Assembly: GCA_946550725.1 (NCBI GenBank)
Contig: CAMNQX010000009.1
Coordinates: 69 to 64,068, forward strand
DNA length: 64,000 nt
Source of the DNA: an uncultured Clostridia bacterium
Lineage (GTDB): Bacteria > Bacillota > Clostridia > Oscillospirales > Oscillospiraceae
Direction of reading: 5' to 3'
Part shown: in pieces, positions 1 to 11,024 of the stretch
Position numbering within the stretch: position 1 is the stretch's first letter
How the letters are laid out: each line of letters starts with the position of its first letter
Notes under the pieces: generated by a model
Database searches by the model: none
What the model was told of the DNA's origin: nothing
What the model saw: only the letters and a program-made list of their open reading frames with translations
Position numbers and translations under genes: made by a program

Positions 1-29
1 ATGGCCGGAATCATCCTTTTTCCTGCCAT
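1..29 (-). CDS. 5' end (9 codons, MAGKRMIPA...) of an ORF that runs off the left edge and is translationally coupled to hsdM. It could be the type I specificity subunit, but it is too short to tell.
   Basis: The reverse complement of nt 1-31 reads TGATGGCAGGAAAAAGGATGATTCCGGCC. The ATG (29..27) shares its A with the hsdM stop TGA (31..29). Confidence 0.3.
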
Positions 30-2587
30 CACACTTTACCTCCCAAAAGAGAAATGAGCTCTTTGATCCCCTGACAGTCGTATTCATTGCCTTCAAGCTG
101 CCGGGCCAGGCCGATCAAGCTCTGTTCCGTTTCCCGCAGCTGCGTTTCAATGTCTTCACAGGTACTTTCATATTTTTTGTCCAGGTCGTTCAGCTTCTTG
201 ACAAAGGCCTCCACCACCTGCATCGGCAGCTGTGCCAGCCCAGACACCACCGGGGCAACCCATTTTTCGTCCAGAAGGGCCATCGCCTGTTCGTCTGTCA
301 GAGTTTCTATGGTCTCCTTGGTCTTCATGTGGAGAGCCGCAGACTCCTCTTTCAACTCCCTCTTGAGCTTTTTCTCCTCGTTAGAAAGGGCGTCCGCTTT
401 TTTGAGAGCCTCCAAGGTCTCCAGCTCACACTCCTGGGCCTTGATCGCCTTCTTGACCTCCGCCCAAACAAAGGCGTCGCCGGTCTCGTTGGTGAAGTCC
501 TTACTCTTATCCTCCTCGCTGAGCGCATCCAGCAGTTCCTCATATTGAGAGGCAATTTCAGAAAGCCGAGCTTCTTTCTCCTGAATGGCGGTCAGCTCTG
601 CCTTCAAATACCGCTCCTGCACCATAGAGAAAGGCATCACATGGCCTACCCAGCCCTCCTGAACCTCCTGATCGTGACCATCCTTTTTCTTCAGTACCAT
701 GTTGGGATCCACCTGCTTGGTGGCAGCAAATCCTTCTGTCTGAATGATCTCCAAATCAATGGAGATATGGCTCCACGCATCGTCCAGCATCTGGTAGGCC
801 TCATAGGGATCCACCAGCGGAATATCGGAAAGGCGTTTGAACACATCCGCACTCAAAATGGATTCTTCCTGGTTGCGGTTCAAAGTCTCCATTTGCTCCA
901 AGAGCTGTCCCCGAAGGAACTGGGGAAGTGTATCCAAGGCGGTATGGTATCCATCCAGAAAATTCTTCACGGACGGATGCTCGAAAACTGCTGTCTTTAC
1001 GTCATCGCTCGAGAAGGTGTAATAAGCGCCGTTTTCAGAGCGTAAGAGAGTATCTTTCAGGCCAGGGAAGGCGGCCCAATAAGCATCCATCTCCGCCAGT
1101 TCGGTTCCTGGAATACCACCAAACATAGAGGCATACAGATCCCAGCTCTCCGCCTTTTCAGACGAGTCCACATAGCGGGGAATATTTAGATTGTAATCGT
1201 TCTGGCGAATCTTTTCGCGGGTAACGACCTCGGCATACTTCTCTACTTTTTCCCTGGCAGTTACTGCGTCTACGATTTTCTTGATGTCTCTGGCTCGGAG
1301 CTTGTTGTTCTTTCCCTCTTTGGCAAATCCTTTAGACGCGTCAATAATCAGCACATCGGTGTTGGGCCTGCGCTGCCGGAGCACCATAATAATGGTAGGA
1401 ATACCGGTGCCAAAGAAGATGTTAGCGGGAAGCCCGATGATCGCGTCAATATGGTTTTGCTCGATCAGGTTTTTGCGGATGGTTCCCTCCTCGCCGCCAC
1501 GGAATAGGACCCCATGGGGCAAAACAATGGTCATAATCCCATCTGGGGTCAGGTGGTAGAGGTCATGGAGCAAAAATGCATAGTCTGCCTTTCCCTTGGG
1601 CGCCAGCCCAAACCGGGCATACCGGGGATCGGAATCCTTGCCAACAGGGTTCCACGCCTGGCTGTACGGGGGATTGGAGACTACCGCATCCACATAGAGG
1701 GGGTCATAGGTACCAACCGGGTCGGCGTCATCAAAGAAGGGCCAGTCCTCCTCTAATGTATCACCGTTCCGGGTGACAATATTGTCAGGCAGAATGCCCC
1801 GCATGACCAAATTCATCCGGGTCAGGTTATATGTATTCTCCTTCAGCTCCTGAGCGTAGTACTTGATTTTGTCCTCGCTGCCCATATAGCGGGCCACGCA
1901 CTTGCCAATATTGATAAGCAGAGAGCCAGATCCGCTGGTGGGGTCATAAATCTTGATTTCTGTGCGGTCCTTTAAGTGATGGGCAACAATCTCGGACATC
2001 AACAGCGAGACCTCATGGGGTGTGTAGAACTCTCCGGCCTTTTTCCCTGCATTGGCAGCGAAATTACTAATCAGGTATTCATAAATAAAACCCAGCACAT
2101 CATAGTCCTGCTTGCCGTCCATGGGGATATCCTTGATTAAGTAAAGAAGGTCACGTATGGCCTTTGTTCTGGCACCAGAGGTCTCACCCAATTTGGAGAG
2201 TCCGGTTTCCAGCGTTTTGAAGATTCCTTCGAATACACGGCGATGCGTGGGATTGATCAGCCGGGCAAAAGAAGAAAGGGCATCCGTAACTTGCCCCGCT
2301 TCGAAGTCGCTCCCCTGGCTAAGCCAAGTAGAAAACAGATACTTGTAGGGAATGAAGTATCCTATGTTTTTCCGAACACTATCAACAGTTTCTGTGTCCT
2401 CCTCTGTTAGCTGAGGAAGGTACTCGTCTGTCCAATCGTGGTCCTTGAGGTATTTTACCTCTTTGTCTGAAAGGAACTTATAGAAAATAAAACCCAGAAT
2501 ATAGTCCTTGTATTCGTTGGCCTCAATCTTGGAGCGCATCTTATTGGCAGATTCCCAAATCTTCGAGGCCAGTTGCTGCTTGTTCAT
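29..2587 (-). CDS. hsdM: Type I restriction-modification DNA methyltransferase subunit (HsdM, N6-adenine), long form with a C-terminal extension of about 360 aa.
   Basis: The N-terminus MNKQQLASKIWESANKMRSKIEANEYKDYILGFIFYKFLSD is a typical HsdM N-terminal domain. AdoMet motif YDPTSGSGSLL and catalytic motif VVSNPPYS (NPPY) are present. The ORF track opens at 2608, but a GGAGGGAG Shine-Dalgarno (2596-2603) lies 8 nt before the in-frame ATG at 2587, so the start is placed there. Confidence 0.9.
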   Translation of the reverse strand: MNKQQLASKIWESANKMRSKIEANEYKDYILGFIFYKFLSDKEVKYLKDHDWTDEYLPQLTEEDTETVDSVRKNIGYFIPYKYLFSTWLSQGSDFEAGQVTDALSSFARLINPTHRRVFEGIFKTLETGLSKLGETSGARTKAIRDLLYLIKDIPMDGKQDYDVLGFIYEYLISNFAANAGKKAGEFYTPHEVSLLMSEIVAHHLKDRTEIKIYDPTSGSGSLLINIGKCVARYMGSEDKIKYYAQELKENTYNLTRMNLVMRGILPDNIVTRNGDTLEEDWPFFDDADPVGTYDPLYVDAVVSNPPYSQAWNPVGKDSDPRYARFGLAPKGKADYAFLLHDLYHLTPDGIMTIVLPHGVLFRGGEEGTIRKNLIEQNHIDAIIGLPANIFFGTGIPTIIMVLRQRRPNTDVLIIDASKGFAKEGKNNKLRARDIKKIVDAVTAREKVEKYAEVVTREKIRQNDYNLNIPRYVDSSEKAESWDLYASMFGGIPGTELAEMDAYWAAFPGLKDTLLRSENGAYYTFSSDDVKTAVFEHPSVKNFLDGYHTALDTLPQFLRGQLLEQMETLNRNQEESILSADVFKRLSDIPLVDPYEAYQMLDDAWSHISIDLEIIQTEGFAATKQVDPNMVLKKKDGHDQEVQEGWVGHVMPFSMVQERYLKAELTAIQEKEARLSEIASQYEELLDALSEEDKSKDFTNETGDAFVWAEVKKAIKAQECELETLEALKKADALSNEEKKLKRELKEESAALHMKTKETIETLTDEQAMALLDEKWVAPVVSGLAQLPMQVVEAFVKKLNDLDKKYESTCEDIETQLRETEQSLIGLARQLEGNEYDCQGIKELISLLGGKV

Positions 2588-2606
2588 CTTTCTATCTCCC
2601 TCCAGC

Positions 2607-2620
2607 ATAAGTAGTACTAC
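2607..2620. repeat. Copy 1 of an identical 14-mer, ATAAGTAGTACTAC, containing the perfect 10-bp palindrome GTAGTACTAC. It lies just upstream of the hsdM ribosome-binding site.
   Basis: Exact string match with 3066-3079. GTAGTACTAC is its own reverse complement. Confidence 0.85.
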
Positions 2621-2659
2621 ATCTCAAAACACATATCAACCACGGCCGAAACGCCATCC

Positions 2660-3040
2660 TTATATGGTACTTTTAATATAGACATAGGATTGAGGTGCCG
2701 CCTTAACTCCGTAATCCGCGAGGGATTTTGCCTTTTTATAACGCCTAACGGTGCCGAGTGCATATGCAACAGCAATGTCTCTTCCAGCATAGTAAACATC
2801 AAAAAACGCTTTATCAATTCCTGCGTCATCAGCGGTGCGCGCCCATATTTTTTCTGGCGTATCTTCTAAAACATCGACAACTTCCGCCTCTGCAACCACC
2901 TGACCCACCGGTGCGGTAGAATAAATAATAATAGATTCAATTTCCTGCTTGCAACGTGTTTTGCGAAATTCAAAATGCTTTTTGCCCGCCAAAATATTTT
3001 CTACATGCTCTGGATTGATAGACATCAGCAGCTTGCACAT
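2660..3040 (-). CDS. ASCH-domain (PUA-like fold) protein, 126 aa.
   Basis: The N-terminus MSINPEHVENILAGKKHFEFRK and the overall size resemble the ASCH/YqfB-like family pattern (I.P.y...Il.G.K..E.R). A GAGGAGAG Shine-Dalgarno precedes the ATG at 3040. Confidence 0.7.
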   Translation of the reverse strand: MCKLLMSINPEHVENILAGKKHFEFRKTRCKQEIESIIIYSTAPVGQVVAEAEVVDVLEDTPEKIWARTADDAGIDKAFFDVYYAGRDIAVAYALGTVRRYKKAKSLADYGVKAAPQSYVYIKSTI

Positions 3041-3065
3041 ATAGCTCTCTCCTCATATTCTTTTG

Positions 3066-3079
3066 ATAAGTAGTACTAC
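3066..3079. repeat. Copy 2 of the 14-mer ATAAGTAGTACTAC (palindrome GTAGTACTAC), upstream of the ASCH gene ribosome-binding site.
   Basis: Exact string match with 2607-2620. Confidence 0.85.
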
Positions 3080-3089
3080 CGCAAATGCC

Positions 3090-3114
3090 AATAAAGCAAG
3101 TCACTTGCTTTATT
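3090..3114. repeat. AT-rich inverted repeat (11-bp stem, 3-nt loop) between the GNAT-fusion stop and the ASCH start.
   Basis: AATAAAGCAAG-TCA-CTTGCTTTATT read directly. No U-tract follows on the minus strand, so it is not called a terminator. Confidence 0.5.
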
Positions 3115-3120
3115 TCTGTA

Positions 3121-4206
3121 TCATAGTCCAAACACGTTCTCAAGTTTGACTCGGGCTGCTTGCCATATGGCCCGGCACTGTGTCGGAGTCAATTGCACTT
3201 GTGTTGGGTATTGTTGTTCGTTGGCCCACAAACCATTTTCTTTTAGCCAAACCATATTGAGGTTGCGCCCTGGGCCAAAATAGCCACAGTAGAGCATAGT
3301 AATAACCGTGATAGTTTGATCGTTGTCAAAGCGTTGCTTTAGCTCTTGCCGATCAAAAACCGTCTTATTTCCTGCCAGTGCTACAAACTCATCAAAGGAC
3401 ATCTTTGCTCGCCCATTTTCTTTTACCGATATCACGCCAGTTACCACACAGTAGGATGTCAAACACGACCTATATCCAGGGCGTCCTTCTGTTCCGGTAT
3501 ATTTGCGATAAATAAAAATTGGCTCTCCTATACGGTAATGCACATTCCAGGCCCTACCAATATACACCTTTGAAACACCATTAGCGGCATCCATGTCAAG
3601 CGGTTCATGTTGTGTATTTTTTAACTCGGAGTATGGAAATAGCGTGTCATGGTAGCCCTCATCAACGATTAAGTAACCACCCTTGCTAAAGTTCGGAGAT
3701 ACAAATGGAAAGGACTTATAAGGATCAGAAAAATCAATATCCTTGCGGCTGCGTAAATAGACTCCCTCTCCTCTGGCGTTGTACCCGGCCAGCTGAAAGC
3801 CAAAACGCTCTACCTGTGCAATTAAGTCCGTATGGCTTGGAAAAATCGTCACATAAATTTCAGCAAGCTTGCTGCGTTGCCAATACCACAGAACAAGTCC
3901 CAAAGCGCCTTCTCCCAAACGCTGCCCACGAAAACGCTCTGCCAACAGCATGGTGGCTATTTTAAGACGGGGCACCGCCGGAAGCTCACCGTTTTGCAAA
4001 AGAATCGGCTCATCTTCTTCCTTCTTCAGAGCAATAAAAGCTCCCAGCCCAGTAGCATCAAAAAATACTACCGCTTTTCGATCCTCTCGTATGCATTTTG
4101 GAAACCATTTGGTCGCAAATTCCGGATAGTCTGCCTTAAGCGAGGCGAATAGGGGATCGTTGATGTCAATTTCAGAAAAAGGTTTCTGCTCAAATTTGCC
4201 CGCCAC
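3121..4206 (-). CDS. GNAT-family acyltransferase-like N-terminal half fused to an unassigned C-terminal region of about 190 aa (361 aa, GTG start).
   Basis: RGQRLGEGALG fits the acetyl-CoA binding motif A (Q/R-x-x-G-x-G/A) of GNAT enzymes. The surrounding pattern (LKIATMLLAERF...IYVTIF...LIAQVERFGFQ) is consistent with a GNAT core. An AGGAGGGG Shine-Dalgarno precedes the GTG at 4206. I recognise no motif in the C-terminal half. Confidence 0.6.
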   Translation of the reverse strand: MAGKFEQKPFSEIDINDPLFASLKADYPEFATKWFPKCIREDRKAVVFFDATGLGAFIALKKEEDEPILLQNGELPAVPRLKIATMLLAERFRGQRLGEGALGLVLWYWQRSKLAEIYVTIFPSHTDLIAQVERFGFQLAGYNARGEGVYLRSRKDIDFSDPYKSFPFVSPNFSKGGYLIVDEGYHDTLFPYSELKNTQHEPLDMDAANGVSKVYIGRAWNVHYRIGEPIFIYRKYTGTEGRPGYRSCLTSYCVVTGVISVKENGRAKMSFDEFVALAGNKTVFDRQELKQRFDNDQTITVITMLYCGYFGPGRNLNMVWLKENGLWANEQQYPTQVQLTPTQCRAIWQAARVKLENVFGL

Positions 4207-4256
4207 TACACACCCCTCCTATTGTGTTATGTACGCCTATTCCCATACAATATATA

Positions 4257-4285
4257 GTATACCTCAAAGTTAGGGCTTTGTAAAT
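4257..4285 (-). promoter_or_regulatory. Sigma-70-like promoter for the GNAT-fusion gene: TTTACA, 17-nt spacer, TATACT.
   Basis: The minus-strand reading is TTTACAaagccctaactttgaggTATACT. The -10 is at 4257-4262 and the -35 at 4280-4285 in plus-strand coordinates. Confidence 0.55.
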
Positions 4286-4358
4286 CCTGGATTTGATCAA
4301 TATGCGGAGCTGCTTTTTTCATTGTTTACAGCATGGTAACGGTCGCCCTTCGGATAGC

Positions 4359-4673
4359 TTACTCGCACTCATCCAGGCAGTCTTGTACCTCGTCCAGCAT
4401 CTCCTCCAGCTTATCGTGGAGGTCTTCCCACTGTTCGTGGGCCTCGGTATCCTCGTCCTCTGGCTCAGCTGCGTCCAGCTGGCTCAACTTGTCCTCCAAC
4501 AGCTCTTCCATTCGGAGCAGTTCTGTTTCCTCCATGCTCTGGAAGTCGGGGCCGGTATCACGCTCAGCACGAACCTCAACCGCCAGTTCTCCATCTTCCT
4601 TGCGGTAAAAGTCAAAGGTCACGCTCAGACCCTCTTCCAGTGCCCTTTTCATGGCGGCAAAGTTATTTTCCAT
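4359..4673 (-). CDS. Hyper-acidic small protein of unknown function (104 aa).
   Basis: A strong Shine-Dalgarno (AAAGGAGG) lies 8 nt before the ATG. By hand count, 37 of 104 residues are Asp/Glu against 9 Lys/Arg. It shares its strand with all neighbouring genes. I recognise no family. Confidence 0.65.
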   Translation of the reverse strand: MENNFAAMKRALEEGLSVTFDFYRKEDGELAVEVRAERDTGPDFQSMEETELLRMEELLEDKLSQLDAAEPEDEDTEAHEQWEDLHDKLEEMLDEVQDCLDECE

Positions 4674-4802: not shown

Positions 4803-4841
4803 AAAAATGTAGCGGGCGCAGTCGAAATGACTGCGCCCGCT
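4803..4841 (-). terminator. Rho-independent terminator after the SauUSI-like gene.
   Basis: A perfect 13-bp GC-rich stem (AGCGGGCGCAGTC / GACTGCGCCCGCT) with a 5-nt loop is followed on the minus strand by ATTTTTGT. It lies 22 nt past the stop at 4863. Confidence 0.8.
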
Positions 4842-4862: not shown

Positions 4863-7800
4863 TTATCCCGCAATCAGCTTATTCGTCTTTTTCAAATACT
4901 TTGCTGGGATCGGCGTGTCCAGCTTCCATGTGATGTTCATGGGGCGGCTGCCCTGGTGGTTCATGTAACTTGCCGTTCCGAGGAAGGTGTAGGGGGCCGC
5001 GGCACCGGCTTCTTGCTTGAATTCCCGCACGAAAAGCAGCACGCGGCTACCCTGCTCAGCATGGTGGATGTACCGCTGCCCGGTAGACGATCTTTCTGAT
5101 GTGGTGCTCTGACTTTGCCAGTGAAACAGCGTTTCGTTGATGGAATAGTCCTTGTACATGGTAGTGGGCGAGTAGTCCTTGTCTGCCTTATTGAGCGTCA
5201 CAAAAAATACATCCAGCTTCTTCTCCGGCAGCCACTTCACGCCCTCGCGGACTGTGGCGGGCTTCATAAAGTCCAGCGCCACCAAGAGCTGATCTCGCGT
5301 ATAGGTGCAGTGCACATCCAGCGAGCAGGCAAAGCCCAGATCCGCCGGCGCGTCAATAAAGTCGATATGGTCATACCGGTATTGCAGCAGCCCTATGATC
5401 TCTCCCAGAAGCGCCGGACTGTTGGCCAGCGCGCGAAGATTATTTCGCACACCGTCGCTGTTCCAGTCCTCCGCTGCCTCCTGCCAGATGGTCACATACA
5501 GCATTTGCAGCATCCGCTGTTCCAGCTCCGGCAGCTTTGAAATATCCATCTTGTCCAGCCTGGGCAGCACATCCAGTAGGAAGGAGATCCAGCGGCGGGA
5601 ATCGATGGCGCAGAGCCTGGAAAGGGCTTTCGTCAGCGTAGCCTCCATAGGATCGGCAAAGTCCTCCCGAACTTCCGCTTCCACGCAGAGCCGCGAAAAG
5701 CTATATTTTCCGTAGATCGCCCGCACGTCCAGGTGGTAATAGTCCAGGAAATTGCCGAGCATAAGGGGTAGGCCGGTGTCCTCTTCAAAGGTGGCAATGC
5801 GGCTCACCAAACCGGCCTTCATACCAAAGGAGTTCTTGATATTATCCAGAATGGCCTTTGCCGCCAGCCTCTCCAGCTGGATGTAGCAGCCCTTGGGCAC
5901 AGAAACAAAGCCGTTTTTTAGCTCATGCTGCACGCTATGGGTGGTATTGGACAGCAGCGCCGCAAATTTCTCCTCAAAGTTGTACTTCTGATTGGCTTGG
6001 CCGATGAAGTCCAGGACCGTCAGGCAGTCCTTCCCCTCTGCCAGTCGCAGTCCTCGGCCAAGCTGCTGGAGGAAAATGGTCAGCGACTCGGTGGGACGCA
6101 GGAAAAGCACGGTGTTGACCTCTGGGATATCGACACCCTCATTGTAGATGTCCACCACAAAGATGAACCGCAGCTCGCCGGATATTAACCGGGCTTTGGC
6201 TGTCCGTCGCTCCTCATCGTTAGAGCCTCCCACCAGGGAGATGGAAGGAATGCCGGCAGCGTTGAAGCTCTCCGCCATGAATTTAGCATGCTCAATAGAG
6301 ACGCAGAAGCCCAGCCCCTTCACCGCCTCCATATCGGTGACATACTTGTCCAGGGACTGGATGATGTGATCCACCCGGCGCTGCGCTACGGTCCGGCTCA
6401 GGACATAGACCTTCTCCAGCTCCGACTTCTCATAGCCGCCTCTGGTCCAGCGAAGGTCATTCAGATCCACCGTATCGGTGACGCCAAAATACTGGAACGG
6501 GCACAACAGCTTGCGGTCAATGGCTTCCGGCAGGCGAATTTCCGCCGCGATGCGTCCGCCAAAGTAGTCCAGGATGCTCTTGCCGTCCATACGCTCCGGC
6601 GTCGCGGTAAGCCCCAGCAGGATCTTGGGCTGGAAGTGCTTGAGCAGCTTTTGATAGGTCGGCGCCGCCGCATGGTGGAACTCATCCACCACGATGTAAT
6701 CATAGTAGTCCGCAGGCAGCTTTTCATAGAGCGCTTGGGAATTCAAGGTTTGGACGGAGACGAAAAGGTGATCGACGCCTTCCGGCCTGAACCCGCCCAC
6801 AAAGAGCTCTCCAAAGTTCGGGTCCCTCAATACGCCCCGGAAGGTCTCCTGGCTTTGCTGCAAAATCTCCTCCCGGTGCGCCACAAACAGCAGCCGGTTT
6901 GCTTTCCCTGGATTTGCCTTGCAAAAATGCAGGTAGTCAAAGGCGGAGATCACCGTCTTGCCCGTTCCGGTTGCTGCCACTACCAGGTTGCGGTTCAGCC
7001 CTCGCACCTCTCGCTCCGCCTGGAGTTTGTCTAAGATTTCCTGCTGGTACGGATAGGGGCGAATGTCAAACACAAAGGTGCGGGCAGCCCCTTCCCCCAC
7101 AAAGCGTTCCGAGCGCAGGGCCTGGAAAAGCCGCTCCCTTTCCTCCTCCCGATAGCACTCAAACTCCGAGGAGTTCCAGTAGCTATCGAAGGTGGCCGAA
7201 ATCTTCTGGATGGTGTCCAGCAGGTCCTTGGCCGTCACCTTCACGTTCCACTCCAGTCCGCTGGAAATAGCTGCATTGGAAAGGTTAGATGAGCCCACAT
7301 AGGCAGTGGTAAACCCTGTGTCCCGGTAGAATACATAGGTCTTGGCGTGAAGGCGGGTGCGCTTGGTGTCATAGCTGACCTTGATCTCAGTGTTGGGCAG
7401 CTTCCGCAGCTCTTCAATGGCCTTGAGATCGGTGGCGCCCATGTAGGAGGTGGTGATGATCCGGAGCGTGCCTCCCCGCTGGGTAAATTCCCGCAGCTCA
7501 TCCATAATGAGCCGGAGCCCGCTCCACTTGATGAAGGACACCAGCATGTCGATCCGGTCCGCCGAGCCGATCTCCTTCTTCAGCTCAGAGAACATCTGGG
7601 GCTCATGGACTGCCCCTGTAAAGAGGCTGCTCTGGGCGATGGAGGTCTCCGGGCGGGTCATGTCTGCCGCCGTTTTTCCCGCGGCCAGCATGGGGTCGTT
7701 TTCCTTCAAAAGCGCAAGAAGCTGCTCCGAGCGCTGGTCCACACGCAGCGCGGCGAAGTCAGCCTCCTGGGTTCTCTCTTCAATCAGCCGGACGATCTCA

Positions 7801-8012
7801 TTGGTCAGTGAAATCTGGGACGGAAGCCCATCGCCGCCATCCTTCACATGGTCCAGTCCTTTTTGTATAACCTCGGTCAAATACTGGGTCAGTACCTGCG
7901 CCGCTTCTGCGGCATCGATAGGGGCAGTCGCCTGGCGGGTAGCCGGGAGCGCCGCCAGCTCCTGGCCGATCTCGTCGTTGATCACCTGCTCATAGAGCCC
8001 TGGCTTTAGCAT
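4863..8012 (-). CDS. SauUSI-like type IV (modification-dependent) restriction enzyme candidate with PLD nuclease, SF2 helicase/ATPase and DUF3427 domains (1049 aa).
   Basis: PLD signature LHAKTYVF...VGSSNLS. Helicase motifs VVAATGTGKT (Walker A), VVDEFHH (DExH), TATPER and QQLGRGLR. The C-terminal FFVTLNKADKDYSPTTMYKDYSINETLFHWQSQ string is typical of DUF3427. The domain order matches S. aureus SauUSI. Confidence 0.8.
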   Translation of the reverse strand: MLKPGLYEQVINDEIGQELAALPATRQATAPIDAAEAAQVLTQYLTEVIQKGLDHVKDGGDGLPSQISLTNEIVRLIEERTQEADFAALRVDQRSEQLLALLKENDPMLAAGKTAADMTRPETSIAQSSLFTGAVHEPQMFSELKKEIGSADRIDMLVSFIKWSGLRLIMDELREFTQRGGTLRIITTSYMGATDLKAIEELRKLPNTEIKVSYDTKRTRLHAKTYVFYRDTGFTTAYVGSSNLSNAAISSGLEWNVKVTAKDLLDTIQKISATFDSYWNSSEFECYREEERERLFQALRSERFVGEGAARTFVFDIRPYPYQQEILDKLQAEREVRGLNRNLVVAATGTGKTVISAFDYLHFCKANPGKANRLLFVAHREEILQQSQETFRGVLRDPNFGELFVGGFRPEGVDHLFVSVQTLNSQALYEKLPADYYDYIVVDEFHHAAAPTYQKLLKHFQPKILLGLTATPERMDGKSILDYFGGRIAAEIRLPEAIDRKLLCPFQYFGVTDTVDLNDLRWTRGGYEKSELEKVYVLSRTVAQRRVDHIIQSLDKYVTDMEAVKGLGFCVSIEHAKFMAESFNAAGIPSISLVGGSNDEERRTAKARLISGELRFIFVVDIYNEGVDIPEVNTVLFLRPTESLTIFLQQLGRGLRLAEGKDCLTVLDFIGQANQKYNFEEKFAALLSNTTHSVQHELKNGFVSVPKGCYIQLERLAAKAILDNIKNSFGMKAGLVSRIATFEEDTGLPLMLGNFLDYYHLDVRAIYGKYSFSRLCVEAEVREDFADPMEATLTKALSRLCAIDSRRWISFLLDVLPRLDKMDISKLPELEQRMLQMLYVTIWQEAAEDWNSDGVRNNLRALANSPALLGEIIGLLQYRYDHIDFIDAPADLGFACSLDVHCTYTRDQLLVALDFMKPATVREGVKWLPEKKLDVFFVTLNKADKDYSPTTMYKDYSINETLFHWQSQSTTSERSSTGQRYIHHAEQGSRVLLFVREFKQEAGAAAPYTFLGTASYMNHQGSRPMNITWKLDTPIPAKYLKKTNKLIAG

Positions 8013-8024
8013 CTCCCTGCCCCC

Positions 8025-8411
8025 TCAGTCTCCAAGCCCCTGGAGCTTGCGCAAAATCACATCGTCCGCAGGGCAAAAATCATAGTTTGAAATTTCCTCC
8101 ACAGTGATCCAGCGAATGTCGTTGTGTTCCAGCTTCTGCGGAGTTCCTTCCGTAATCTCCGCCCGGAATAGGGTCAGGTGAACGGTCAGGTCCGGGTACT
8201 CATGGGTGACCTCCATGTAAACCTCGTTGACCGCGACGGTCACGTTGAGCTCCTCTTTGCACTCGCGAATGAGCGCCTGCTCCTTTGTCTCGTCAGGCTC
8301 CACCTTGCCGCCGACGAACTCCCACAGCAGGCCCCTGGCCTTGTGCTCCGGCCGCTGGCAGATCATAAACTTGTCTCCCGCCCAGATGAGGGCAGCTACT
8401 ACTTCGGTCAT
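8025..8411 (-). CDS. Nudix (MutT/NudG-like) nucleoside triphosphate pyrophosphohydrolase.
   Basis: Near-canonical Nudix box GKVEPDETKEQALIRECKEELNV. The ORF track opens at a GTG at 8462, but the ATG at 8411 has a GAGAGGGA Shine-Dalgarno and gives a typical length of about 128 aa. The stop lies 13 nt before the SauUSI-like start, so the two are probably co-transcribed. Confidence 0.85.
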   Translation of the reverse strand: MTEVVAALIWAGDKFMICQRPEHKARGLLWEFVGGKVEPDETKEQALIRECKEELNVTVAVNEVYMEVTHEYPDLTVHLTLFRAEITEGTPQKLEHNDIRWITVEEISNYDFCPADDVILRKLQGLGD

Positions 8412-8462
8412 ATTCTCTTTTCCCTCTCTGTTCGTTCTGGAAAACCCACGTTTGTCAGGCAC

Positions 8463-8911: not shown

Positions 8912-10018
8912 CTACGAAAATGAGAAGCCTGTCCAGGTGGGAACGCCGGTGTATGTCTTTAATGCCTCCTTGCCCTCCAAAACGCGGATCACACCTGCGG
9001 CCATGGCCTCCATTTCAAACTCGCCGGGGTAAGAGGTGACCGGGGCAATAAAACTGCAATCCTCGGTGATCCGTTGGACCAGGCCCTGATCGTGTACAAT
9101 GCCGCCGCCTAACAGGATGCCGTCCACCTTGCCCTTTAATACGACGGCCATGGCGCCAATGTATTTTTCGATCTGGTAAATAAAGGCGTCCCACACCAGA
9201 GCTGCCTCCCGGTCGCCTGCTGCGACGCGGGCGGTGATCTCCCTGGCATCGGAGGTCCCCAGGAGGGAAACGAAGCCGCCGGTCTTGACGGCCAAGGCCT
9301 TTACGGCGTTCCCAACGGCGCCGGTGTTCCTCATATAGTTCAGAATTTCAACGACAGGGATGGAACCGCAGCGCGTCGGCGCCATAGGGCCTTCGCCGCC
9401 GACGATATCGTTGCCGTCGATCATTCTGCCGTGATCGTGGGCGCTGACGGACACGCCGCCTCCAATGTGACAAACGATAAAGCTGCAGTCCTCATACCGC
9501 TTGCCGATGTTCTGTGCGTGACGGATGGCGGTCTCTTTCAGGTTCAGGGCGTGAAGATGCACGTTCCGGTACACGCCCTTGATCCCGGTCACCCGGGCGA
9601 CATCCTGAAGCTCATCCGTGTCCGGGGGATTGACAACGTACGCCTTCTTGCCATAGGCGTCCGCATATTTCTGAGCCAGCTGGGGGCCAAGGGTCGCCGG
9701 ATGGGGAACACCGTTTGCGATATGAACTGCGTGGTCCAGCAGTACATCATTCACGGCGTAGGTGCCGCCCTCGACGCCCAAAAGTCCGCCGCCGCGGCCT
9801 ACAAAAGCGTCCACGCCGCTCAGATCCACATGATGCTCCGCCAGCAGACGGCTGATGGTCTCTTCGCGGTAGGGCAGTTGCTGGGAAATGGAGGCAAACT
9901 CTTTGAGTTTGTCCGCGTCGTGGGACACGTTGGCGCCAAACAGCTTTTCTTCCCCGTCAAACAACGCGATCTTGGTAGAGGTCGAGCCGGGATTGACAGC
10001 AAAAATCTTGTAGCCCAT
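8912..10018 (-). CDS. buk: Butyrate kinase.
   Basis: N-terminus MGYKIFAVNPGSTSTKIALF (ASKHA phosphate-1 motif typical of Buk), 368 aa, immediately downstream of a Pta/Ptb-family gene. Confidence 0.9.
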   Translation of the reverse strand: MGYKIFAVNPGSTSTKIALFDGEEKLFGANVSHDADKLKEFASISQQLPYREETISRLLAEHHVDLSGVDAFVGRGGGLLGVEGGTYAVNDVLLDHAVHIANGVPHPATLGPQLAQKYADAYGKKAYVVNPPDTDELQDVARVTGIKGVYRNVHLHALNLKETAIRHAQNIGKRYEDCSFIVCHIGGGVSVSAHDHGRMIDGNDIVGGEGPMAPTRCGSIPVVEILNYMRNTGAVGNAVKALAVKTGGFVSLLGTSDAREITARVAAGDREAALVWDAFIYQIEKYIGAMAVVLKGKVDGILLGGGIVHDQGLVQRITEDCSFIAPVTSYPGEFEMEAMAAGVIRVLEGKEALKTYTGVPTWTGFSFS

Positions 10019-10022
10019 CTGA

Positions 10023-11024
10023 TCACCCGTTTCTCTGTGCTCTGACGCAGCTCATGACCACATTTCCAATCAGCTCCGACACCGGCGAGCTTCTGGAACA
10101 GTCGCAGACGATCTTGTTGAAGCCCTGCAGGAAAGGACCGTACGCGTCGGCGTGCGCAAACTGCTGGACGAGCTTCACACCCACGTTCCCCACGTCGATG
10201 TTGGTCCAGATAATGATATTTGCTTTGCCGGCGACCTTGGAATCCCGCTGGACCTTTTTGGCCGCGACGGCGGGGTCGACGGCGGAATCCAGTTGGAATT
10301 CGCCGTCAATGGCCAGATCCGGCCGCTTTTCGTTGGCGATCCGCACGGCCTCCACCACCTTGTCCACCATCTGCCCCACGCCGGAGCCGCACGTGGAGTA
10401 AGAGAGCATGGCGCATCTTGGCTCCCAGTCGGTCAGGGCGGCAACGGTCTCGCACGCGGAGATGGCGATGCCCGCCAGATCCTCGGCGCTGGGGTCTACG
10501 CACACCGCAGAGTCGCCGAAGGCGAGAAGACTGCCCTCGGACCCGTTATAGCCGGGGATATTGAAAATGCCGCAGCTGGATACCGTGTTGACCCCTTCCT
10601 TCATGCCGATCACCGTTTGGCCCGCTAAGATCACATCGCCTGTGGTATGCGTCAGCCCGGCAAAGGTAACGTCGATCTGGCCGTTGGCCTGCATCATAAG
10701 GGCGGTGAACATGGGGTCGGCGTTTGCCCGCCTTGTCATCGACTTGGCAGAGAACAGGGGATAGGCCGCCACATATTCCGTAACGGTTTTTTCGATGAAC
10801 GCTTCGTCGTATCCGTCCACTACTTGGATGCCCTCCAGAGAAATGCCGAACCGTTCCGCCGCCGCACGGATGTCCGCCGGGCGGCCGACCAGAACGGGGA
10901 TGCAATACCCGTTGTCATGCAATTCCTTTGCCGCCAGCAGGATCTTTTCTTCCGTTGCCTCCGGAAAGGCGACCCGCTGAGGGTGCGCCTTCGCTTTGGC
11001 ATAAATGCGTTCCATCATATCCAT
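10023..11024 (-). CDS. Phosphate acyltransferase of the Pta/Ptb family. Probably a phosphate butyryltransferase given the 4-nt spacing to buk, although its 333 aa is closer to Pta size.
   Basis: The N-terminus ...AKAHPQRVAFPEATEEKILLAAKEL... and the later DGEFQLDSA region are typical of the PTA_PTB family. Confidence 0.8.
   Translation of the reverse strand: MDMMERIYAKAKAHPQRVAFPEATEEKILLAAKELHDNGYCIPVLVGRPADIRAAAERFGISLEGIQVVDGYDEAFIEKTVTEYVAAYPLFSAKSMTRRANADPMFTALMMQANGQIDVTFAGLTHTTGDVILAGQTVIGMKEGVNTVSSCGIFNIPGYNGSEGSLLAFGDSAVCVDPSAEDLAGIAISACETVAALTDWEPRCAMLSYSTCGSGVGQMVDKVVEAVRIANEKRPDLAIDGEFQLDSAVDPAVAAKKVQRDSKVAGKANIIIWTNIDVGNVGVKLVQQFAHADAYGPFLQGFNKIVCDCSRSSPVSELIGNVVMSCVRAQRNG

Follow-up and report, generated by a model that had tools for sequence, protein, structure and literature searches.

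The window, by which we mean the whole 64-kb stretch of DNA that was analysed, carries on its minus strand a gene for a 361-aa protein (gene A), a gene for a 126-aa ASCH protein (gene B) and, directly following this pair, hsdM of a type I restriction-modification (RM) system. The features of the locus are:

4206..3121, minus strand: gene A, encoding the 361-aa protein; GTG start, RBS AGGAGGGG
3718..4206, minus strand: GNAT acetyltransferase domain of the gene A product, N-terminal, about residues 1-163, with RGQRLGEGALG at 93-103
3121..3717, minus strand: predicted PUA-like (ASCH/EVE-type) β-barrel of the gene A product, residues 164-361, stop codon included
3040..2660, minus strand: gene B, encoding the 126-aa ASCH protein, assigned to the ZmASCH type; PDC-M11B, orthologue of 'GevA'
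29..2608, minus strand: hsdM, a context gene, long-form type I methyltransferase (Pfam HsdM_N and N6_Mtase, TIGR00497, PADLOC MTase_I)
4256..4284, minus strand: module promoter, with -35 TTTACA at 4284..4279, a 17-nt spacer and -10 TATACT at 4261..4256
3090..3114, minus strand: 11-bp stem-loop, AAUAAAGCAAG-UGA-CUUGCUUUAUU, just past the stop codon of gene A, with no U-tract
3066..3079, minus strand: 14-mer copy 1, GTAGTACTACTTAT, exact, 25 nt upstream of the gene B start codon
2607..2620, minus strand: 14-mer copy 2, GTAGTACTACTTAT, exact, 19 nt upstream of the likely hsdM start codon (2587)

A sequence-only reading of this DNA had reported the genes, the GNAT motif RGQRLGEGALG, the ASCH assignment and the adjacency to hsdM, and all of these sequence-level statements were upheld. 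It had also called the pair the most AT-rich part of the island; the G+C content is 0.43-0.46 over 2250-4000, the minimum of the island, compared to 0.50-0.60 on both sides. The gene order A-ASCH-hsdM, on one strand, is common to the window and two relatives, L093 and L097 (79% and 87% protein identity). hsdM is outside the conserved module, yet lies downstream of the pair in these closest relatives; translation of it probably begins at the ATG at 2587 (852 aa), rather than at 2608. A scan for terminators found none between gene B and hsdM. The pair had further been described as embedded between a methylase and a type IV restriction enzyme. The position itself was correct, as the pair has hsdM on its 3' side and, on its 5' side, a type IV gene that is terminated separately. 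However, hsdS and hsdR are beyond the window edge, so that the pair flanks the hsd operon and a position inside it cannot be claimed. An exact-match lookup with the HsdM protein yielded no contig extending further, on which hsdS and hsdR might have been seen.

Both proteins matched the models of a catalogued candidate system. PADLOC PDC-M11A matched the 361-aa protein at 1e-56 (residues 5-354 against model positions 12-351 of 357), and PDC-M11B matched the ASCH protein at 1e-41 (residues 3-124 against positions 2-124 of 132). Orthologues in a lambdoid E. coli phage (GenBank PV340567.1), annotated 'GevT toxin' and 'GevA antitoxin', matched the same two models at 2e-133 and 7e-52; the gene A product shares 30% identity with GevT across 97% of its length, and the gene B product 44% with GevA. 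PDC-M11 is a phage defence candidate, from a set defined by embedding in RM, BREX or DISARM loci (Payne et al., bioRxiv 10.1101/2024.01.29.577857). Operons of (PIN)-GNAT-EVE and ASCH genes with an optional AAA_17 P-loop protein, in which PIN and AAA_17 are frequent but not invariable, were described as putative toxin-antitoxin systems by Bell, Wolf and Koonin in 2020 (PMC7641849). The pair is a copy of this catalogued candidate module, GNAT-EVE/ASCH (PADLOC PDC-M11; 'GevT/GevA'), and no new kind of system. The statement that no described defence system has this composition found no support, given the PADLOC entry, the paper of Bell et al. (PMC7641849) and the GevT/GevA annotation.

The window copy resembles the module of PDC-M11 and Bell et al. 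in that both proteins match over their full length, with a GNAT followed by a C-terminal PUA-like domain and an ASCH gene alongside, and in its mobile and defence context, which includes type I RM neighbours. It differs in that its 361-aa protein lacks a PIN domain and that a search of the full 64 kb found no AAA_17-like gene. With GevT/GevA it shares an orthologous family, the gene order and the PADLOC models, but the E. coli genes overlap and lie in a prophage directly after cI, whereas in the window a gap of 80 nt separates the two genes, which are chromosomal and precede hsdM. The literature library that we searched returned no experimental paper on the GNAT-EVE/ASCH family or the Gev names. 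Thus a large and widespread family for which no biochemistry paper was found there makes a good experimental target.

The N-terminal half of the gene A product is a GNAT domain. The window protein alone gave a weak score with Pfam Acetyltransf_3 (E 0.032, below the cut-off); Pfam Acetyltransf_1 was matched by 32 of 45 family members, and a PDB profile search gave GNAT matches at E 1e-4. The acetyl-CoA motif residues R96, G98, E99 and G100 were invariant (45 homologues), as was the motif R/Q-x-x-G-x-G/A in the family. The AF2 model of the full protein had a pLDDT of 86.7, and its N-terminal half retrieved only GNATs from the PDB with Foldseek (NatD, PaiA, Ard1, AAC(2')); against viral structures the full model retrieved just generic GNATs. 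These structural matches were not specific to tRNA-acetylating toxins, one of which (7byy) appeared at rank 45. Val or Leu takes the place of the motif-B tyrosine that is canonical in many GNATs, so catalytic competence of the gene A product is not assured. TmcA/NAT10, the ac4C writers, have a helicase-type ATPase fused to a GNAT and a tRNA-binding tail. In contrast, no helicase domain was found in the 361-aa protein by domain search or in the AF2 model, and its relatives have just a small separate AAA_17 P-loop protein.

Foldseek searches of the whole model against the PDB were dominated by the GNAT half, so we modelled the C-terminal domain separately (AF2, pLDDT 84.8). Its matches in the PDB were ZmASCH (5guq; E 7.5e-5, target TM 0.68-0.70) and YqfB (9kyf; target TM 0.68), then MJECL36, the McrB N-terminal domain and YTH. 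With respect to class, the barrel is near ZmASCH, YqfB, the McrB N-terminal domain and YTH, with ASCH structures fitting better than EVE structures (Foldseek) and no match to Pfam EVE or ASCH. The domain contains a disordered loop at residues 193-208, and among its many invariant positions, polar and aromatic, are H186, D187, K213, Y233, R234, S247, C248, T250, S251, N280, Y306 and W320. A structure prediction for residues about 170-361, which the sequence-only reading could not assign, had been proposed as a check, and from these models the C-terminal half is predicted to be a second PUA-like (ASCH/EVE) barrel, a fold of nucleic-acid or modified-base readers, which makes the 361-aa protein a GNAT-PUA fusion. 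Such a reader fold would be in keeping with a GNAT acting on nucleic acid. Sequence homology between this domain and the ASCH partner was considered and rejected (hhalign probability 1%); the likeness is at the level of the fold only.

The 126-aa partner scored 21.2 bits with Pfam ASCH, right at the cut-off. In a PDB profile search it matched ZmASCH at E 2.4e-14 over residues 5-123, and by sequence it belongs to the ZmASCH subfamily. It aligns with ZmASCH (PDB 5GUQ) over its full length and keeps the GxKxxExR motif; its invariant residues include G19, K21, E24, R26, Y40 and S118, of which Y40 and S118 correspond to the cleft residues Tyr47 and Ser128 of ZmASCH. Lys53 of ZmASCH is not conserved, however, and while the PDB entry is titled 'helix-turn-helix domain-containing protein', the gene B product has no HTH. 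Mg-dependent binding and cleavage of ssRNA, described as weak, have been reported in vitro for ZmASCH alone (Kim et al. 2017, PMC5615036). On at least 7 plasmids, chiefly alpha-proteobacterial ones, a ZmASCH-like gene was located about 0.5 kb from a gene A homologue. In addition, NF008917, a family of L22 ribosomal-protein fusions, matched the gene B product through its C-terminal domain (E 4e-11); this match and the PIN fusions in relatives (PMC7641849) are hints of RNA or translation.

The partner had been proposed to be an eraser of the type of YqfB, the E. coli N4-acetylcytidine amidohydrolase, and this proposal was not supported. YqfB uses Thr24 as an essential nucleophile (T24A is inactive), in a Thr24-Lys21-Glu74 triad with Arg26 as the oxyanion hole (PMC6972931). 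The gene B product has the ASCH fold and equivalents of Lys21 and Arg26, but position 24 is an invariant Glu in its family (35 sequences), and no counterpart of Glu74 could be aligned. The alignment to YqfB was limited to the GxKxxxxR motif (17 columns, hhalign probability 3.3%), and the PDB profile search with the gene B product gave no match to YqfB at E up to 10. YqfB, moreover, is a stand-alone housekeeping enzyme. With Glu in place of the Thr nucleophile and no sequence relationship by profile search or hhalign, we rejected a YqfB-type eraser for gene B.

The sequence-only reading had given the pair its own TTTACA-17-TATACT promoter, and this was borne out. The site has 10 of 12 consensus matches in a consensus scan, although the whole scan returned 5 sites against 4.2 expected, which is not above chance. 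The promoter block, GATTTACAAA...TATACTATATATTGTAT, is kept nearly base for base in L093 and L097 (79% and 87% protein identity), in which the flanks have diverged. The 14-mer GTAGTACTACTTAT, reported to precede both gene B and hsdM, is indeed exact at both sites (chance expectation 0.03 matches), and its core GTAGTACTAC is a 10-bp palindrome. The regulatory coupling proposed from it found no support in conservation: an exact copy occurred only in the window and in the identical metagenomic contigs L081 and L082, and relatives of 79-87% identity had at most a degenerate look-alike, for which MAFFT may have forced the alignment. We therefore rejected the 14-mer as a conserved operator and regard it as a candidate regulatory element. 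The 80-nt spacer between genes A and B contains the stem-loop at 3090..3114; the spacer RNA folds at -18.9 kcal/mol, and the terminator scan made no call there.

Genes A and B are strictly linked. The ASCH gene was downstream of gene A and on the same strand in all 80 species-level loci, and the two reading frames overlapped or were at most 5 nt apart in 69 of them. Natural fusions comprised ASCH-GNAT-PUA, ASCH-PIN-GNAT-PUA and GNAT-PUA-AAA_17. An AAA_17 P-loop gene adjoined the pair in 46 of 75 informative loci (61%), and no nuclease or other restriction partner was conserved with it; the core consists of A and B only. An acidic 104-aa ORF upstream of the pair was rejected as a third component, being confined to contigs identical to the window and absent in L093, L094, L097 and L001-L080. 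The gene A family has more than 1000 cluster representatives at 50% identity, in which the PUA-like fusion is obligate, and is spread patchily across phyla (Bacillota, Proteobacteria, Actinomycetota, Verrucomicrobiota and archaea). Among 5426 complete E. coli genomes, 275 (5%) had the GevT/GevA allele.

The module is found on mobile elements (prophages and temperate phages, plasmids, integrative elements), and a homologue was present in 15 phage and 33 plasmid records; the majority of the 80 loci, like the window, are chromosomal or island-borne among host defence genes. The sequence-only reading had asked whether the pair co-occurs and lies next to defence genes, and a survey of neighbourhoods confirmed both, with RM and other defence genes the commonest neighbours overall and type I RM the commonest single one. 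In 36 loci, mostly from Bacillota, a true HsdM was at most four genes away in 9 (25%), in varying orientation; within four genes on each side there were also specificity subunits (8), ResIII (7), type III methyltransferases (about 5), SNF2 and SIR2. Individual loci had HpaII RM genes with an integrase and Mob, or SbcCD-like genes with GmrSD, and elsewhere the neighbours were type II RM, type III RM, integrases and Fic. In the lambdoid E. coli phage the order is cI-GevT-GevA-kil, with the module directly after cI and just upstream of kil. We take this slot to be about where lambda carries rexAB, and such a placement would presumably mean expression in the lysogen rather than early in the lytic cycle. 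As three quarters of the 36 loci have no true HsdM that close, the module appears autonomous, and a wiring to hsd like that of PrrC, which had also been suggested, finds no support, given also the type II and III RM neighbours, the integrases and the cI-kil slot.

To these data the window adds a PIN-less form immediately 5' of a type I hsdM, a conserved module promoter, and an ASCH partner that falls in the structurally solved ZmASCH subfamily and not in the YqfB deacetylase branch; these three points sharpen the choice of experiments. What makes the target attractive is a GNAT whose aim would be set by a PUA-like reader and which comes with an ASCH partner and, in some cases, a kinase.

How might the module work? 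The linkage in 80 of 80 loci, the fusions, the mobile elements and the RM neighbours make the GNAT fusion and its ASCH partner a credible defence or toxin-antitoxin candidate, as had been suspected from its place in a defence island. We think it probable that GNAT-PUA plus ASCH form a defence module similar to toxin-antitoxin systems, in which the acetyltransferase is directed at nucleic acid. We infer the toxin and antitoxin roles from the depositor's annotation and operon logic; the substrate and the trigger are presumed. The gene A product would be an acetyl-CoA-dependent GNAT fused to a reader barrel of the PUA-like (ASCH/EVE) kind, which would dock the enzyme on nucleic acid, probably RNA with a particular or modified nucleotide, such as tRNA or aminoacyl-tRNA, and acetylation of this target would lead to toxicity and a stop in translation. 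The gene B product, as an obligate partner, would keep the gene A product harmless in uninfected cells, by binding it, occupying its nucleic-acid site or processing its product. Phage infection might then upset the balance between A and B, resulting in abortive infection or exclusion. In the window, the low-G+C cassette with its own promoter, beside a type I hsdM and a type IV enzyme, would be an extra layer of the defence island, independent of RM.

TacAT, AtaRT, ItaRT and KacAT also combine a GNAT enzyme with a small neutralising partner (putative here) in a two-gene mobile operon, and a translation block by acetylation would, by analogy, be a plausible shared logic. In those systems, however, the toxin is a GNAT of about 170 aa on its own, preceded by the gene of a DNA-binding RHH/DUF1778 antitoxin, and in TacAT, AtaRT and ItaRT it acetylates the α-amine of aminoacyl-tRNA. 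In the window the GNAT carries a PUA-like domain as well, and its ASCH partner is encoded downstream; HMM searches found no RHH or DUF1778 match at the pair.

Some observations run against a toxin-antitoxin reading. The toxin and antitoxin labels have the GenBank annotation as their sole source, and the ASCH partner is not a classical DNA-binding antitoxin. The window genes, with a hairpin in their 80-nt spacer, are not translationally coupled as in most loci. The motif-B substitution and the broad GNAT fold matches described above apply here too, since the former leaves catalytic competence not assured and the latter show no preference for tRNA-acetylating toxins. DNA might just as well be what the PUA-like domain reads, and the toxin-antitoxin reading gives no part to AAA_17, adjacent in most informative loci and missing in the window.

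If the domain read DNA, the GNAT-PUA protein could acetylate an exocyclic amine of a DNA base, and the ASCH protein could read or remove the mark, labelling self or disabling invading DNA. DNA-base acetylation was proposed by Iyer et al. in 2013, who first noted GNAT-EVE operons, as cited by Bell et al. (PMC7641849), and the 'self-marking chemistry' of the sequence-only reading is close to it. It would suit a protein pair with two PUA-like domains, of classes that read modified DNA bases, as well as the known HTH-ASCH and HsdS-ASCH fusions (PMC7641849), the frequent RM neighbours and the position directly 5' of hsdM in the window and two close relatives. We nevertheless consider it unlikely, as the conserved surroundings offer a P-loop protein instead of a nuclease or restriction partner, the gene B product does not have the Thr nucleophile found in the one ASCH deacetylase known so far, and PIN RNase fusions point to RNA. 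The slot after cI, if it is the rexAB site as we assume, would also suit an exclusion or toxin system better than genome marking. The hsdM adjacency could alternatively mean that the pair is a second-line effector like PrrC, held latent by the type I RM proteins and freed when a phage inhibits them. The window and its 79% and 87% relatives keep A-ASCH-hsdM on one strand, the scan found no terminator between gene B and hsdM, each of these two genes has the 14-mer in front of it, no single neighbour is commoner than type I RM, and the PDC set was itself defined by RM, BREX or DISARM embedding. Like the anticodon nucleases PrrC/RloC, which lie within hsd loci, the pair would be a possibly toxic accessory effector next to type I RM. 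We give this reading little credence, however. The pair has neither an ABC-ATPase nor an anticodon-nuclease domain and, lying 5' of hsdM, appears to be outside the hsd operon rather than between hsd genes; its hsd association is facultative (25% of loci) and varies in orientation, the 14-mer is not kept in the closest relatives, and prophages, plasmids and loci with unrelated systems also carry the module as a unit.

Carriage by temperate phages, plasmids and integrative elements is what would be expected if the module served counter-defence, protecting phages from host RM, or were a selfish addiction module that stabilises the island by post-segregational killing and has no anti-phage role. 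The low-G+C cassette and the compact overlapping pair, as in addiction modules, would fit, and Bell et al. speculated that GNAT-EVE may shield phages from host RM (PMC7641849). Against this, the window and most of the 80 loci are chromosomal or island-borne among host defence genes. The phage copy after cI, presumably expressed in the lysogen rather than early in the lytic cycle, would likewise be at odds with it, and we regard both variants as improbable. An ordinary metabolic or resistance acetyltransferase (for polyamines, aminoglycosides or similar) beside an unrelated small RNA-binding protein is hardly credible: the best matches of the GNAT half do include spermidine acetyltransferases, PaiA and AAC(2'), but the obligate PUA-like fusion in more than 1000 cluster representatives, the invariable ASCH linkage, the PIN, ASCH and P-loop fusions, the patchy spread across phyla including archaea, and the mobile and defence context all speak against it.

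A broader form of base acetylation, which we likewise hold with low confidence, would make the GNAT-PUA protein a nucleic-acid base acetyltransferase leaving an RNA or DNA mark, with the ZmASCH-type partner and the P-loop kinase of most relatives reading, reversing or gating the mark, and with co-expression with the downstream type I RM in the lineage of the window. If true, bacteria would have in GNAT-PUA their first immune chemistry based on acetylation. The pockets of both PUA-like domains show high conservation, and the absent YqfB-type nucleophile is the sole argument against an eraser.

The GNAT-PUA gene A and the ASCH gene B are not a novel pair but another copy of a known, biochemically uncharacterised module. 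Both proteins matched PADLOC models over their full length (A to PDC-M11A, 1e-56; B to PDC-M11B, 1e-41). The PDC set comprises 145 untested 'phage defence candidates' from genes inside BREX, DISARM or type I RM loci (Payne et al., bioRxiv 10.1101/2024.01.29.577857). Bell, Wolf and Koonin (BMC Biol 2020, PMC7641849) described GNAT proteins with a C-terminal EVE domain and often an N-terminal PIN domain, whose operons nearly always include an ASCH gene and frequently an AAA_17 ATPase gene, and regarded them as a putative toxin–antitoxin system; the PIN form was associated with type I RM, the PIN-less form occurred in prophages, and no module of this type had then been characterised. That paper credits the first description, and the idea of DNA-base acetylation, to Iyer et al. 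2013. The sequence-only reading had seen in the pair a possible undescribed defence-type module acting on nucleic acid; that interpretation is supported in part, as to a defence-type module directed at nucleic acid, and the novelty is lost to the match with PDC-M11 and the 2020 description.

The A family is carried by 15 phage records, as found by tblastn against phage genomes. The two genes of Escherichia phage PhiR47_2 carry the annotations 'GevT toxin' and 'GevA antitoxin' and directly follow cI (gene order cI-GevT-GevA-kil), roughly the position of rexAB in lambda. They matched the same PADLOC models (2e-133 and 7e-52), GevA is 44% identical to B, and 275 of 5426 complete E. coli genomes carry the PhiR47_2 allele. 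A literature search found neither a GevT/GevA paper nor an experimental study of the A/B family. The interest of the locus stems from the open biochemistry of this whole family, not from the copy in the window.

All relevant genes of the locus lie on the minus strand.

Features of the locus
8012..4863, minus: 1049-aa PLD-helicase-DUF3427 protein (PLD nuclease, DEAD/ResIII helicase, DUF3427); PADLOC mREase_IV, type IV restriction enzyme, 7e-234
4841..4811, minus: strong, GC-rich terminator-like hairpin (13-bp) after the type IV gene; terminator scan
4673..4359, minus: very acidic 104-aa ORF between the type IV terminator and the module promoter
4284..4256, minus: promoter-like site TTTACA-17-TATACT; promoter scan
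4206..3121, minus: A, 361 aa; GTG start, good ribosome-binding site
3114..3090, minus: perfect 11-bp stem-loop without a U-tract, directly after the A stop codon in the A–B spacer
3040..2660, minus: B, 126-aa ASCH protein
2608..29 (as listed), minus: hsdM; type I methyltransferase by Pfam, PADLOC and TIGR00497

The N-terminal half of A is a GNAT. The Pfam GNAT match of A alone was below threshold; Acetyltransf_1 was matched in 32 of 45 homologues, the family profile retrieved GNAT structures at E 1e-4, and the corresponding half of the AF2 model (pLDDT 86.7, pTM 0.85) matched GNATs only in a structure search. The acetyl-CoA motif at residues 93-103 is invariant among homologues, and the motif-B tyrosine that serves as general acid in many GNATs is replaced in the family by a hydrophobic residue. 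Because the sequence-only reading could not assign the C-terminal half, we modelled it separately (pLDDT 84.8). It is a PUA-like beta-barrel: its best PDB match was the Zymomonas mobilis ASCH protein (ZmASCH; E 7.5e-5, target TM 0.68-0.70), E. coli YqfB was matched with a target TM of 0.68, and further structural matches included MJECL36, the McrB N-terminal domain and YTH domains. Profile comparison detected no sequence similarity between this half and B, and there was no Pfam EVE or ASCH match to it. Many polar and aromatic residues of this half are invariant in the homologue alignment, which suggests a specific pocket.

B was assigned by profile to the ZmASCH subfamily of ASCH proteins: ZmASCH was retrieved from the PDB over the full length (E 2.4e-14), the canonical GxKxxExR motif is present, and two invariant residues, Y40 and S118, are the equivalents of Tyr47 and Ser128 in ZmASCH. 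B also matched the C-terminal domain (model positions 192-311, E 4e-11) of NF008917, an NCBIfam '50S ribosomal protein L22/unknown domain fusion protein', which hints that this subfamily can act at the ribosome. At least seven plasmids, mostly alpha-proteobacterial (examples: NZ_CP120375.1, 554178-556029; NZ_CP141214.1, 878256-880107), carry ZmASCH-like genes ~0.5 kb upstream of A homologues. This linkage ties the one relative of B that has been both solved and assayed to the same operon type, and the solved ZmASCH structure is probably that of a partner protein of a GNAT-PUA/ASCH module, a link that the ZmASCH paper (PMC5615036) does not appear to draw.

The A family comprised 1017 representatives at 50% clustering (E up to 1e-3). 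A scan restricted to a single genome from each species yielded 80 loci, mostly from Bacillota and also from Actinomyces, Akkermansia, Coriobacteriales, Pirellulales, Listeria and methanogenic archaea. A is a GNAT fused to a PUA-like reader with an obligate partner of ZmASCH type: an ASCH homologue lay downstream on the same strand in 80/80 loci, with the two frames overlapping or at most 5 nt apart in 69/80. Natural fusions take the forms ASCH-GNAT-PUA, ASCH-PIN-GNAT-PUA and GNAT-PUA-AAA_17. A P-loop protein and a PIN domain are optional in relatives; of 75 informative loci, 46 have an adjoining small AAA_17/AAA_18 P-loop gene, which precedes A in 43 and separates A from ASCH in the other 3, and none was found in a search of the whole 64-kb window. 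This recurrent third gene encodes a kinase-like protein of ~170 aa (for example in relatives L083, 9475-9990, and L087, 11093-11620), which weakly matched PADLOC 'VakA' (2e-5) and is fused to an A-type C-terminus in one protein (P0346). The A–ASCH gap is 80-100 nt in the lineage of the window, where it measures 80 nt. Two relatives of ~60% identity (L003, 7294-7758; L004, 1663-2146) have ~470 nt between the GNAT and ASCH genes that do not encode AAA_17 and may hold a different small gene.

The module has spread horizontally and resides in defence islands and prophages, and defence and mobility genes predominate among its neighbours. When the four nearest ORFs on either side were tallied for 36 loci, the most frequent families after AAA_17 were HsdM (9), type I specificity subunits (8), ResIII helicase-nucleases (7), type III methyltransferases (~5), SNF2 and SIR2; these are raw counts of ORFs called by a crude script rather than an enrichment statistic against a matched background. 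At one locus, Vsr, an integrase and a Mob relaxase accompany an HpaII RM system; another has SbcCD-like genes and GmrSD, and a third lies on a conjugative-type element together with Fic proteins and an ABC ATPase. Relatives of 87% (L097) and 79% (L093) protein identity share the order A-ASCH-hsdM and the long HsdM family of the window, and a relative of 70% had A-ASCH-Fic instead.

The most likely reading, at moderate confidence, is that A and B form a toxin–antitoxin-like defence module, in which the PUA-like domain would direct GNAT acetylation onto nucleic acid, most probably RNA of the translation system, and B would hold the activity of A in check. The substrate of A is a guess, and a doubtful one; RNA is hinted at by the PIN fusions in relatives, by the match of B to the L22 fusion family and by the preference of ZmASCH for single-stranded RNA in vitro (PMC5615036). 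The alternative that A writes and B erases an acyl mark, by analogy with the N4-acetylcytidine amidohydrolase YqfB, has lost ground because B has Glu at the position of the essential Thr24 nucleophile of YqfB and is otherwise unrelated to it in sequence, although B might conceivably have a different hydrolytic chemistry. The suggestion that hsd proteins hold the pair latent, as with PrrC, is likewise weakened since the hsd association is facultative and its orientation variable. As far as the window covers the hsd operon, the pair is its 5' flank and not placed between hsd genes; hsdS and hsdR must be past the left window edge.

At the level of sequence, the earlier description of layout, low G+C, promoter and duplicated 14-mer was borne out. 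G+C drops to 0.43-0.46 over 2250-4000, compared to 0.50-0.60 on both sides; the type IV gene is host-like (0.55-0.60), in contrast to the low-G+C cassette downstream. The 14-mer GTAGTACTACTTAT, which contains the palindrome GTAGTACTAC, has two exact copies, one 25 nt ahead of the B start and the other 19 nt ahead of the probable start of hsdM (chance expectation 0.03). The exact form is restricted to the window and two identical metagenomic contigs, with at most a degenerate look-alike in relatives. The promoter block GATTTACAAA...TATACTATAT(A/G)TTGTAT is nearly base-for-base constant across the three aligned A-ASCH-hsdM loci, whose flanking DNA has diverged; this supports a real promoter at 4284..4256 and perhaps an operator within the block. 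By eye, an inverted repeat CAAAG-N6-CTTTG lies between the -35 and -10 hexamers and another, ATAC-N8-GTAT, overlaps the -10 (4256-4290); both are present in the window and L097, are less perfect in L093, and are possible operators for autoregulation. For the stem-loop at 3114..3090, which lies between A and B, attenuation, RNA processing and control of RNA stability are possible functions.

The PADLOC and TIGR00497 alignments of HsdM start at residue 8-10 and a second ATG has a good ribosome-binding site (GGAGGG) ~10 nt upstream, so that the true start is probably at 2587 and the listed one, at 2608, seven codons too early. From 2587, HsdM is a long form of 852 aa with a C-terminal extension of ~360 aa, and it matches the PADLOC MTase_I model PDLC03022 end to end. 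The 104-aa ORF (pI 4.05; 37 Asp/Glu against 9 Lys/Arg; own ribosome-binding site) had no significant Pfam match (three below cut-off, E 0.009-0.07) and no NCBIfam or PADLOC match; it was seen on window-identical contigs only, being absent beside other family members, and might act as a regulator or as a DNA mimic. The type IV gene is immediately preceded by a MutT-like NUDIX hydrolase gene (8025-8462, minus), and beyond it lie (8912-11024, minus) an apparent butyrate kinase and phosphate butyryltransferase, judged from N-terminal sequences alone. These genes suggest a right-hand island border near 8.0-8.5 kb and a butyrate-producing member of the Clostridia as host.
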